Shown here: positions 3,001 through 6,000 of the stretch, in pieces
Layout: each line of letters begins with the position of its first letter
Position numbering within the stretch: position 1 is the first letter of the stretch
Source of the DNA: Escherichia coli
Lineage (GTDB): Bacteria; Pseudomonadota; Gammaproteobacteria; Enterobacterales; Enterobacteriaceae
NCBI RefSeq assembly: GCF_045037415.1
Contig: NZ_CP173438.1
Strand: one strand, 5' to 3'
Length of the DNA: 64,000 bases
Position numbers: made by a program

Positions 3001-6000
3001 CTGCCGATGTGTGGTGCGCTGACCGTTGGTGCGCTGTGGGTTAACCTGGAAGAAAGCTCAATGGTTCTGGGTCTGATCTGGGCTGCTATCGGTCTGATTT
3101 ACCTGGCTTGCGTAACCAAGAGTTTCCGTAACCCGGTTCCGCAGTACGAAGACGTAGCGTAATCTTACAAACCGGATGACATAATCATCCGGTAAATCTC
3201 AAAAAGCCGGAGTTTGTCGCTCCGGCTTTTTTGTTGTGCACAGAAAACCCCCAGCTAGGCTGGGGGTTCCGGAAAGCTTTCAGCTTTGAGCCAGTTATTA
3301 AAACCCCTTTTGATTTGTTAAAACACCTTGCGGTCTGGCAACTGCAAGTGTCAAACAAGAAATCAAAAGGGGGTCCCAATGGGGAACGAAAAGAGCTTAG
3401 CGCACACCCGATGGAACTGTAAATATCACATAGTATTTGCGCCAAAATACCGAAGACAGGTGTTCTACAGAGAGAAGTGTAGAGCAATAGGCTGTATTTT
3501 GAGAAAGCTGTGTGAGTGGAAAAGTGTACGGATTCTGGAAGCTGAATGCTGTGCAGATCATATCCATATGCTTGTGGAGATCCCGCCCAAAATGAGCGTA
3601 TCAGGCTTTATGGGATATCTGAAAGGGAAAAGCAGTCTGATGCCTTACGAGCAGTTTGGTGATTTGAAATTCAAATACAGGAACAGGGAGTTCTGGTGCA
3701 GAGGGTATTACGTCGATACGGTGGGTAAGAACACGGCGAAGATACAGGATTACATAAAGCACCAGCTTGAAGAGGATAAAATGGGAGAGCAGTTATCGAT
3801 TCCCTATCCGGGCAGCCCGTTTACGGGCCGTAAGTAACGAAGTTGGATGCAAATGTCAGATCGTGTGCGCCTGTTAGGGCGCGGCTGGTAAGAGAGCCTT
3901 AAAGGCGCATTTGAAAAACCTCCGGCTATGCCGGAGGATATTTATTTTCAGACGATCTCTTCCGCGTACTGCCAAAGCGCTTTTAACAGCGCCACTTTCT
4001 CTTTGTCATCGGCATACTGTTGTGCCAGCATCTGCAATTCATCAGCATAGCCCTGCAAAAACTCTGGCGTGAAGACCTGGCGGCGGTGCTCCAGCCAGCG
4101 TTGCTGCTCGGCATAATCCAGCGTCCCCGGGAAGTTGCGCGCTCGATAATTGAACAACAGTTTTTCAATTCGTTTATCAACAAAAGTGATATCCAGTGCC
4201 GGTAAATTACGCGGCTCGGTTTCCAGCACAATTTTCATTGCTGCACGATCGGCGTCACTGAAAAAGCCATTATAAAGCTGTGCATCCACGTTATCTGAAG
4301 GTGTAAACGGTTCGGCTTCCGCGAATATCGCCACCACTTTTTCACGCACTTGCGGATTTTCACGCAGAATTTTTAGGTTATCGAGGCAATGCTGACGATT
4401 AATTCCCAGTCGGTCGGCATCTTCCGGGCGTAGCGTATTCGCCTGGGCCAGTACCGGACATTTATTGATATGCACCAGCTTAACCGGAACGGCGGCGTTA
4501 TCGCCAAGATCGGCTTTTGCGGTATATAAACGCTCGCGCAATGTGTCGCTATCCAGCTCCAGTAATGGCGAAATGTCTCCTGCCAAATCCACCAAAATTA
4601 CGGCATTGCGATTTTCAGGATGCCACGCCAGCGGTGCCACCCAGCTGGTATTGCCACGCCATGCCCCAAACATTCCGGAAACGTGAACTAGGGGTTTCAT
4701 CTGCGGAACATCAATCAACGCCATCAGTTTGTGTTTATTACGATGGGTAAAGAGATAATCAAACAGGCGTGGCTGACGCGTTTTTACCAGTTTCGCCATC
4801 GCAATAGTGGCGTACACATCAGCCATCGCATCGTGGGCGTTGCTATGTTCAATACCATTCGCTTTGGTTAAATGCTCAAGGCGAAAGCTCGGTAGACCGT
4901 CATCATTTTCAGGCCAGTTTATTCCTTCCGGGCGCAGGGCATAACAGGCACGCATAACATCCAGTAAATCCCAGCGCGAGTTATCATGCTGCCAGCTCCA
5001 GGCGTAAGGATCGTAGAAATTACGATAAAAAACGTTGCGTGTGACTTCGTCGTCGAAACGCACATTGTTGTAGCCCAGAATACAGGTCTTCGGTACGGTA
5101 AAAAGCGAGTGAATACGGGCGGCAAACGCGGCTTCGTTTTCTCCTTTCGCCCGTGCCTCCTGCGGGGTAATACCGGTAATTAATACTGCTCCAGGCTGGG
5201 GTAAATAGTCATCCGCGGGCTTGCAGTAAAAGACTTCGGGTTCGCCGATGACATTGAATTCGTTATCAGTGCGAATGGCTGCGAACTGTGCAGGGCGATC
5301 TAACGCGGGGTGCGTTCCAAAGGTTTCGTAATCGTGAAACAAAAAGGTAGATTGTTGCTTACCGTCATTCATCATTAGGTTAAATCCGTTATTTCTGCTG
5401 TCTGCCAGAGTATCAAATATCACCGTGCTAATCAGCTTTAGCGCGACAATTTGGCAGCGAGTGGCAACAGATCATGTCAGATAAAAATGAGATAGTAGTC
5501 ACATTTTCTTGCACTTTATTCCAGCCAGTTCATAAGTATTTCCGTAAAAAGAACAGCTATTTGAAACACCTGAGGGTTTGCTGTTGAAACGCCGTCTTAT
5601 TATTGCTGCTTCTTTGTTCGTTTTTAATTTATCGTCTGGTTTTGCGGCGGAAAACATTCCTTTTTCACCTCAGCCTCCAGAGATTCATGCCGGGTCCTGG
5701 GTATTGATGGATTACACCACCGGTCAGATTCTCACCGCGGGTAATGAGCATCAACAGCGCAATCCCGCCAGCCTGACAAAGCTGATGACGGGCTATGTCG
5801 TGGATCGCGCTATCGATAGTCATCGCATTACGCCAGACGATATTGTCACCGTGGGGCGTGATGCGTGGGCGAAAGATAATCCGGTGTTTGTCGGTTCTTC
5901 ACTGATGTTTTTGAAAGAGGGCGATCGCGTATCGGTACGTGATTTAAGCCGTGGTTTAATTGTGGATTCCGGAAATGACGCTTGTGTTGCTCTGGCTGAC

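Follow-up and report, generated by a model that had tools for sequence, protein, structure and literature searches.

An IS200C element in the plaP terminator of an Escherichia coli chromosome without yeeE and yeeD

We analysed a 64,000-nucleotide stretch of the Escherichia coli chromosome NZ_CP173438.1 (the window), in which the convergent genes plaP and sbcB are separated by a transposable element and, besides it, by a 73-bp spacer only. plaP, coding for a putrescine/proton symporter, lies at 1804..3162 on the plus strand (tblastn 99.8% over 452 amino acids), and sbcB, coding for exodeoxyribonuclease I, lies at 3948..5375 on the minus strand (98.9% over 475 amino acids). Both follow the RefSeq annotation of an identical genome (NZ_CP195410.1), where neither bears a pseudogene flag, in line with the sequence-only reading of intact flanking core genes. 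That reading was also correct in placing two further genes here in K-12, its order being yeeY-yoeI-plaP-tsuA(yeeE)-tsuB(yeeD)-sbcB(-)-dacD. The window does not have yeeE and yeeD between plaP and sbcB, the position that defines the TsuA/TsuB locus, and tblastn with E values up to 10 returned nothing beyond noise, with no homolog of either gene anywhere in the 64 kb and no truncated yeeE or yeeD remnant. By eye, we found no trace of the yeeED cassette in the 73-bp spacer; the core of the plaP terminator (CCGGAG...CTCCGG with a T-run) was all that the two had in common.

The element is a complete IS200C of 712 bp at 3236..3947 on the plus strand, 100% identical to RefSeq elements annotated as "IS200/IS605-like element IS200C family transposase". 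An IS200-like element had been placed at 3236-3945; set against the IS-free junction in strain 536, the element was confirmed and its limits came out at 3236-3947. In 536, the uninterrupted sequence is ...CTCCGGCTTTTTTGTT|TCAGACG; at precisely this point the window gains 712 bp, with a TT ambiguity at both junctions that permits a boundary shift of up to 2 nt. Relative to the canonical 711 bp, the window insert has one extra T at the right junction, which could stem from slippage in the T-run or from an ancestral site with four Ts. The sole annotated CDS is tnpA (3379..3837, plus strand), and there is no tnpB. It encodes an intact Y1 (HUH) transposase of 152 amino acids, free of internal stops, that contains an H-I-H motif and GYY and matches NCBIfam NF033573 (transpos_IS200) with 140.6 bits, above the cutoff of 55. 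Judged against 32 other full copies, it departs from the consensus at R34C, S39C and L89P; among all 33, R34C is unique to the window copy and L89P is rare.

Both ends of the element are structured. The left-end structure described from sequence alone is real: the Rfam model RF01405 (STnc490, representing the tnpA 5'UTR/antisense sRNA) matches over its full length at 3246..3369 on the plus strand (146.4 bits, E 1.4e-31, gathering score 56), and the 10-bp left-end hairpin occupies 3246..3268 on the same strand (RNAfold -18.7 kcal/mol). The hairpin at nucleotides 12-34 of IS200 has been described as the element's own bidirectional terminator against read-through (PMC4513863). The right-end subterminal hairpin, at 3919..3937, is terminator-like on both strands; on the minus strand (-16.3 kcal/mol) it is followed by TTTTT and stands 10 nt past the sbcB stop codon, the TGA at 3950-3948 that adjoins the right end of the element. 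The left end, GTGCACAG..., and the right end, ...GGATATTTATT, are not complementary, so there are no terminal inverted repeats. We place the copy in the IS200 group of the IS200/IS605 family, given its Y1 TnpA of ~150 amino acids, its single ORF in ~0.7 kb, its subterminal hairpins, its insertion without target-site duplication, its STnc490/art200 5'UTR and the position of its top strand on the lagging-strand template. It is an already known element, annotated as an ordinary IS200C. The 64-kb window contains no second IS200 copy, and most genomes with this insertion carry this copy only.

The top strand of the element is the plus strand, at 1.89 of 5.05 Mb in a record that starts at dnaA(+). 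The position of oriC relative to dnaA is established in E. coli, and with the record anchored in this way the top strand of IS200C is on the lagging-strand template. We relied on this anchor for the direction of replication instead of on GC skew, which in the window is weakly positive (0.02) and too noisy to be used alone. Such a placement is what is expected of the IS200/IS605 family (PMC5371812).

To the left of the element, the spacer contains two hairpins. One of them, CCGGATGACATAATCATCCGG at 3172..3192, was identified by reading the sequence and is specific to the yeeED-less allele, being kept in strains 536 and 10035776-3, in E. whittamii, in E. albertii and in E69, a divergent Escherichia lineage, and missing from the yeeED+ alleles of K-12 and APEC O1. 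The other is the predicted intrinsic terminator of plaP at 3201..3235, with a stem at 3201-3213/3219-3231 and the T-run TTTTTTGTT. It folds at -19.6 kcal/mol on the plus strand and -18.3 kcal/mol on the minus strand (RNAfold), is terminator-like on both, and in IS-free genomes adjoins the sbcB stop codon. A simple terminator scan did not report it despite the -19.6 kcal/mol; we call it from the fold and from conservation, CCGGAG...CTCCGG plus a T-run being conserved 3' of plaP across all the Enterobacteriaceae loci that we read. The T-tract of this terminator is the target of IS200C in the window.

Surveying 5426 complete E. coli genomes, we found yeeED in 4209 (78%), a yeeED-less junction without an IS in 783, among them 536 and Nissle 1917, and IS200C at the plaP|sbcB junction in 430, three mutually exclusive classes that add up to 5422 of the 5426. 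About 22% of complete genomes are yeeED-less, and the genome counts indicate that these have no yeeED copy elsewhere. The locus varies among B2 strains, with yeeED present in APEC O1 and in the type strain DSM 30083 and lacking in 536, Nissle and the window. Known ST131 strains, JJ1887 and O25b:H4 for example, are among the IS-bearing genomes, and nearly all of these genomes are 100% identical across the junction, which indicates a single recent clone. The expectation that IS200 is infrequent in E. coli did not hold, as an IS200C match occurs in 3093 of the 5426 genomes (57%) and 2063 have a copy that spans 80% or more of the element, though the number per genome is below that of Salmonella (2.9 versus 9.6; PMC4513863).

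The terminator of plaP has been entered more than once. Strain ETEC4068 has an IS200C copy 3 bp to the left, with 11 nucleotide differences, as an exact 711-bp addition to the 536-type site in which no bases are duplicated. LSN03-016011/A has the order plaP-IS200C-tsuA-tsuB-sbcB, with the element in the plaP terminator, tsuA and tsuB intact, and an exact 711-bp insertion relative to K-12 without duplicated bases; it is the one genome with IS200C in this terminator plus yeeED. On a metagenome contig (L162), the right end of the element adjoins the sbcB stop codon. We count four independent insertions within a few bp in this one terminator.

The yeeED-less allele itself extends beyond E. coli. 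E. whittamii has a nearly identical spacer, E. albertii and E69 have one that is still recognisably homologous, and because these share both the IS-free junction and the homologous spacer, the allele would predate the IS insertion. The suggestion that this lineage had lost yeeDE or never had it was right as to the absence, and "lost in this lineage" was too narrow for a spacer common to E. whittamii and E. albertii. In an outgroup sample without E. fergusonii, E. marmotae, E. ruysiae and the E. coli type strain, plaP and sbcB are immediate neighbours in S. arizonae, most Enterobacter and many Citrobacter, and yeeED occupies this position in Kluyvera, Pseudocitrobacter, other Citrobacter and Kosakonia. 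YeeE/YeeD diverge between genera in step with SbcB, an argument for old genes and for yeeED-less alleles that are probably ancient deletions rather than a state that never had them. We regard the interval as an old presence/absence polymorphism. We rejected the idea that the yeeED-less flanks form a deep haplotype apart from yeeED+ B2 strains: the window flanks are 98.5-100% identical to APEC O1 up to the stop codons.

We then collected left flanks of IS200C from assembled metagenome contigs by an exact left-end pattern, which gave 69 distinct flanks among the 98 stretches listed. Within this set, T occupies positions -1 and -2 in 69/69, position -5 in 68/69 and position -4 in 62/69; all 69 end in a T-run, ...TTTTNTT|, and a GC-rich hairpin precedes nearly all of them. 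A GC-rich hairpin plus T-run upstream of IS200C has the form of an intrinsic terminator. Under strict definitions, 42 of the 69 flanks among the matches listed had both hairpin and T-run, versus 8 of 2077 random control positions. Another 18 of the listed flanks had no strict hairpin, nearly all of these showing an imperfect or large-loop hairpin by eye, and the remaining 9 failed on T-count only. When T-rich sites alone were compared, a strict hairpin was present in 42 of 56 IS flanks among the matches listed versus 8 of 81 random control sites. The distance from hairpin to junction varies from 2 to 11 nt among the listed flanks.

From these observations, we think it very likely that IS200C entered the plaP/sbcB terminator of a chromosome that was already yeeED-less, that the target pattern sets its position, and that it is not the cause of the absence. 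The order of events that we infer starts from a chromosome without yeeE and yeeD before IS200C arrived, carrying the allele that segregates in E. coli and other Escherichia, in which a 73-bp spacer combines a hairpin of its own with the plaP terminator. IS200C would then have inserted by single-strand "peel and paste" into the T-tract of the terminator common to plaP and sbcB; it stands at this spot because IS200C inserts directly 3' of T-runs ending ...TTTTNTT, which in nearly every case follow a GC-rich hairpin, and places its left end beside the T-run. The insertion interrupts no gene and leaves plaP its terminator, to which the left-end hairpin of the IS probably adds another barrier to transcription entering tnpA. 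For sbcB, the predicted replacement terminator is the right-end hairpin, which on the minus strand has the form hairpin plus T5.

It is exceedingly improbable that the IS caused or accompanied a deletion of yeeE and yeeD and marks its scar, the latter being one of two readings that had been proposed. Only co-location speaks for this, as the IS fills the interval that holds yeeED in K-12. Against it, the same junction occurs without any IS in 783 genomes, the complete yeeED-less spacer of other Escherichia species stands to the left of the IS, the IS is an exact 711/712-bp addition, LSN03-016011/A combines the insertion with intact tsuA and tsuB, and the window has no truncated remnant of either gene; the IS-free junctions and the yeeED+ IS-bearing genome contradict a scar outright. 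Alternatively, the IS could be ancestral to all yeeED-less E. coli and the IS-free genomes secondary, through precise excision. The family is described as excising precisely (PMC5027513), so that an excised site would resemble an empty one. However, the site is empty in E. whittamii, E. albertii and E69 as well as in divergent E. coli strains whose flanks match the window at 96-98%; the near-uniform identity of the IS-bearing genomes fits a single recent clone; and the extra T of the window means that excision would not restore the observed empty sequence. We consider such a history highly improbable. As to how the chromosome came to be yeeED-less before the IS, yeeED may once have been present and been replaced when the yeeED-less allele was imported by homologous recombination from another Escherichia lineage, a possibility worth serious attention that we nonetheless hold somewhat short of probable. 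It is favoured by the split among B2 strains, by the near-identity of the spacer to that of E. whittamii, and by flanks that match APEC O1 (98.5-100%) as far as the stop codons, which suggests that alleles recombined tightly around the indel. However, the flanks show no long imported tract, in a comparison with no power to reveal one or to give the polarity, and vertical retention of an ancestral yeeED-less state, with loss or gain elsewhere, is just as good a fit.

Why a terminator should be the target can likewise be explained in more than one way. The link may reflect survival of harmless insertions, TnpA needing a T-rich motif only and other insertions being purged. The variable distance from hairpin to junction agrees with this, as does a published target described only as T-rich (PMC6963479). 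It accords less well with the low share of strict hairpins at T-rich control sites compared with T-rich IS flanks among the matches listed (8/81 versus 42/56), with the invariant orientation of IS200C, and with four independent hits within a few bp of one terminator, and we regard it as possible though doubtful. More speculative still is that IS200C is a structure-directed, "terminator-seeking" transposon whose TnpA reads a GC-rich hairpin plus T-tract (...TTTTNTT) in single-stranded DNA, resembling the hairpin plus ATATTTATT that forms the right end of the element. If this were true, the element would land in one orientation just behind intrinsic terminators, harmless and transcriptionally silenced, and its repeated insertion into the plaP terminator would directly display this specificity. 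That terminators are in statistical excess upstream of IS200/IS605 elements is already on record in a preprint, and the T-rich target of IS200C has been noted (PMC6963479); what would be new is the exact motif, the hairpin requirement and the right-end mimicry only.

In itself the insertion is of little importance, being annotated at exactly this site in 430 complete RefSeq genomes, and the presence or absence of yeeED is ordinary accessory-genome variation. The insertion is a clean clonal marker, and the locus shows why IS200C copies are tolerated, landing as they do behind terminators with terminator-like hairpins at both ends. The ~22% of complete E. coli genomes that are yeeED-less, the window lineage included, have no TsuA/TsuB thiosulfate importer. 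Without it, thiosulfate uptake must rely on the CysPUWA route, and these genomes therefore depend on CysPUWA.

TsuA/TsuB is the thiosulfate uptake pair described in E. coli K-12 (PMC11073785); the tsuA/tsuB (yeeE/yeeD) genes fill the interval there and in the 4209 genomes of the survey, and are absent from the window. Under the ISfinder name used by RefSeq/PGAP, IS200C is represented by copies in hundreds of RefSeq genomes with 100% nucleotide identity to ours; they are alike in having one tnpA, subterminal hairpins, no inverted repeats and no target duplication, and the window copy differs from the copy consensus only by R34C, S39C and L89P and by the extra T at the right junction. The Salmonella IS200 (707 bp; art200/STnc490; Ellis et al. 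2015, PMC4513863) shares the STnc490 model, which matches the window copy at full length, and ours is the E. coli variant, 711-712 bp as delimited, known here from its sequence. IS608 and ISDra2 resemble it in their Y1 HUH transposase, in insertion 3' of a short motif without duplication, and in the placement of the top strand on the lagging-strand template (PMC5371812). Their targets are TTAC and TTGAT, respectively, whereas IS200C copies lie 3' of ...TTTTNTT, almost always after a hairpin, and IS200C, unlike IS608 and ISDra2, has no tnpB. The A-runs 5' of both IS200C hairpins may pair with the T-rich sites as guides to the cleavage sites.

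In the window, the 3' end of plaP (3162) is followed by a 73-bp spacer holding a small hairpin (3172-3192) and the intrinsic terminator of plaP (3201-3235; AAAAAGCCGGAG-TTTGT-CGCTCCGGCTTTTT + GTT; -19.6 kcal/mol). The insertion begins at 3236 and is 100% identical to the RefSeq 'IS200/IS605-like element IS200C family transposase'. Its left-end hairpin (3246-3268) lies within a full-length match to Rfam STnc490 (3246-3369, 146 bits), which spans the structured tnpA 5'UTR and the art200 region, and is followed by an intact tnpA of 152 aa (3379-3837; NCBIfam transpos_IS200, 140.6 bits against a cutoff of 55) and a right-end hairpin (3919-3937). 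Directly beyond the IS right end comes the stop codon of sbcB (TGA, 3950-3948, minus strand). The RefSeq record of an identical genome annotates both plaP and sbcB as intact. A 20-codon membrane-protein gene, yoeI (1752-1814), overlaps the plaP start and appears in the annotation of every E. coli record inspected. We found one IS200 copy, and neither yeeE nor yeeD, in the 64-kb window. Its GC content falls to about 0.44 at 48001-64000, from 0.49-0.54 elsewhere, a drop that would fit horizontal exchange of a gene cluster, for instance an O-antigen locus.

In K-12 the order is yeeY-yoeI-plaP-tsuA(yeeE)-tsuB(yeeD)-sbcB-dacD; the sequence-only reading gave its sbcB-yeeD-yeeE-plaP part correctly. 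That reading also placed the element to within 2 nt and was correct about the intact flanks and the missing thiosulfate-uptake pair (yeeED), all of which is an ordinary finding: public annotation already shows the IS, where it sits and that yeeED is missing. Its causal interpretation, that the IS marks the scar of yeeED loss, is largely incorrect. We sorted 5426 complete E. coli genomes by three diagnostic queries: 4209 have yeeED, 430 carry IS200C at a yeeED-less junction and 783, including 536 and Nissle 1917, have the plaP|sbcB junction with neither. These classes total 5422; therefore they are mutually exclusive and, at megablast sensitivity, the yeeED-less genomes lack the pair elsewhere. 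Nearly all of the 430 IS-bearing genomes are 100% identical over the junction, which indicates that the insertion at the yeeED-less junction was one clonal event; its carriers include the known ST131 strains JJ1887 and O25b:H4. Individual genomes show further changes: the annotation of 536 gives plaP as a frameshifted pseudogene (1507-2869 of the fetched sequence L002), the IS3-like ISEc52 adjoins IS200C in WGS1363 (NZ_CP141204.1), and IS1A lies inside tsuA in AR96.3A (NZ_CP189437.1).

The scar interpretation is contradicted by four results that separate the IS from the missing yeeED pair, beginning with the same junction in the IS-free genomes. Relative to that junction (...CTCCGGCTTTTTTGTT|TCAGACG), the window has gained 712 bp exactly at the bar, with zero bases removed. 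The canonical element is 711 bp; the additional T lies in the right-junction T-run (3940-3950, ATTTATT+T+TCAGACG). ETEC4068 carries an independent IS200C, 11 nucleotides different from the window copy and placed 3 bp to its left within the T-tract of the plaP terminator, with the same orientation. The yeeED-positive LSN03-016011/A has the order plaP-IS200C-tsuA-tsuB-sbcB, with tsuA and tsuB intact and an exact 711-bp insertion in the plaP-terminator T-tract (3628-4338 of its fetched locus, L186). Finally, a human gut metagenome contig (L162, 1-760) has another IS200C whose right side borders directly on the sbcB stop codon; on its left lies a different hairpin (CTCTTTTTACAGAGGGCTTTTTATT), unlike the plaP terminator elsewhere, and the contig end cuts off the upstream context. 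The plaP terminator is therefore a recurrent IS200C target, regardless of what lies beyond. In LSN03-016011/A the insertion puts 711 bp between tsuA and the region upstream of it, possibly with an effect on tsuA expression.

We then scanned metagenome contigs (assemblies) with the exact 35-nt IS200C left-end pattern, which yielded at least 98 stretches with, among the matches listed, 71 distinct left flanks, 69 of which extend for 50 nt or more. Among these listed matches the flank ends in TT in 69/69, with T at -5 in 68, T at -4 in 62 and a variable -3, giving the consensus ...TTTTNTT|GTGCAC. A strict terminator-like criterion (a perfect stem 5 bp or longer with a 3-8 nt loop, ending no more than 14 nt from the junction, and 6 or more T among the final 10 nt) was satisfied by 42 of the 69 listed flanks versus 8 of 2077 random positions in the same contigs; among the remaining listed flanks, 9 miss the T count alone and 18 have no strict hairpin, although inspection by eye shows a hairpin, imperfect or with a large loop, in nearly all of these 18. 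Among the copies listed, the IS right end does not vary (...CCTCCGGCTATGCCGGAGGATATTTATT), and what follows it is unrelated from copy to copy. In these flanks, IS200C copies thus lie in one orientation immediately behind intrinsic-terminator-like sequences. The pattern is very clean and already hinted at in the literature, terminator-like sequences being most strongly over-represented just upstream of IS200/IS605 elements (preprint, 10.1101/2025.07.22.666184) and the IS200C target having been described as T-rich (PMC6963479).

Such a pattern could arise if TnpA recognises the hairpin, or if hairpins are merely enriched through the survival of harmless insertions. Among the matches listed, a strict hairpin accompanies 42 of 56 T-rich IS flanks and 8 of 81 T-rich control sites, which favours recognition, but the distance from hairpin to junction varies from 2 to 11 nt in the listed copies, arguing against rigid recognition. 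A-runs lie 5' of both IS hairpins (AGAAAA at the left end, GAAAAA at the right) and, per the IS608 model, may be guide sequences pairing with T-rich cleavage sites.

How old, then, is the yeeED-less allele? We mapped YeeY, PlaP, YeeE, YeeD, SbcB and DacD on 80 plaP loci (L007-L086), one per species-level genome, an outgroup set exclusive of E. fergusonii, E. marmotae, E. ruysiae and the E. coli type strain. plaP and sbcB are direct neighbours (gap of ~65-140 bp) in E. albertii, E. whittamii and a divergent Escherichia record titled E. coli E69, and direct neighbours also in S. enterica subsp. arizonae, most Enterobacter, many Citrobacter, Atlantibacter and Trabulsiella. yeeE-yeeD occupy the same place in Kluyvera, Pseudocitrobacter, Leclercia, Kosakonia cowanii and others, and in some Citrobacter (for example amalonaticus, sedlakii and youngae CCUG 30791, but not youngae ATCC 29220). 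The E. whittamii spacer is near-identical to the 73-bp spacer of the window, and those of E. albertii and E69 are clearly homologous to it, hairpin included, whereas the spacer of the yeeED-positive K-12 and APEC O1 shares only the terminator core. Because of this homology across species and difference from yeeED-positive alleles, the yeeED-less allele is not a fresh deletion from the E. coli yeeED-positive allele but an old one, segregating within and between Escherichia species. The proposals that the genes were lost in this lineage, or that it never had them, are thus both too simple. Between genera, YeeE/YeeD divergence parallels that of SbcB, which suggests that the pair is ancient and the yeeED-less alleles old deletions. 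The window flanks are 98.5-100% identical to those of APEC O1, a yeeED-positive B2 strain, up to the stop codons; any linked signal of polarity has been erased by recombination. At these plaP loci, PlaP comes in two classes, one 96-100% identical to its counterpart in the window (E. albertii, S. arizonae, several Citrobacter, Enterobacter cloacae DSM 26481, Pluralibacter) and one 87-90% identical (other Citrobacter, Enterobacter cloacae M-7, Klebsiella, Raoultella). Because these classes ignore taxonomy while the adjacent SbcB is 82-94% identical in both, they suggest inter-genus exchange or allelic dimorphism of plaP.

Members of the IS200/IS605 family move as single-stranded DNA, leaving and entering the chromosome at the lagging-strand template (PMC5371812; PMC5027513). 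In a record starting at dnaA(+), with the locus at 1.89 of 5.05 Mb, the top strand of the IS corresponds to the + strand, which places it on the lagging-strand template, as expected for the family. After insertion the plaP terminator would be retained, and read-through toward tnpA would meet the left-end hairpin; that of Salmonella IS200 is a bidirectional terminator (PMC4513863). sbcB would no longer be in direct contact with the shared terminator and would run instead into the right-end hairpin, which on the minus strand is followed by TTTTT and lies 10 nt after the sbcB stop codon. Compared with the consensus of 33 copies, the window TnpA has R34C (this copy alone), S39C and L89P. Most genomes with this insertion hold it as their single IS200C copy, so we see no sign of recent activity.

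The element is matched in 3093 of the 5426 E. coli genomes (57%), with a copy covering at least 80% of it in 2063 and a median of 1 and maximum of 35 matching places per genome. Contrary to what had been supposed, IS200 is therefore not infrequent in E. coli, yet it is scarcer per genome than in Salmonella, with 2.9 versus 9.6 copies (Ellis et al., PMC4513863). The window element itself has all the defining IS200-group features that were open to testing.
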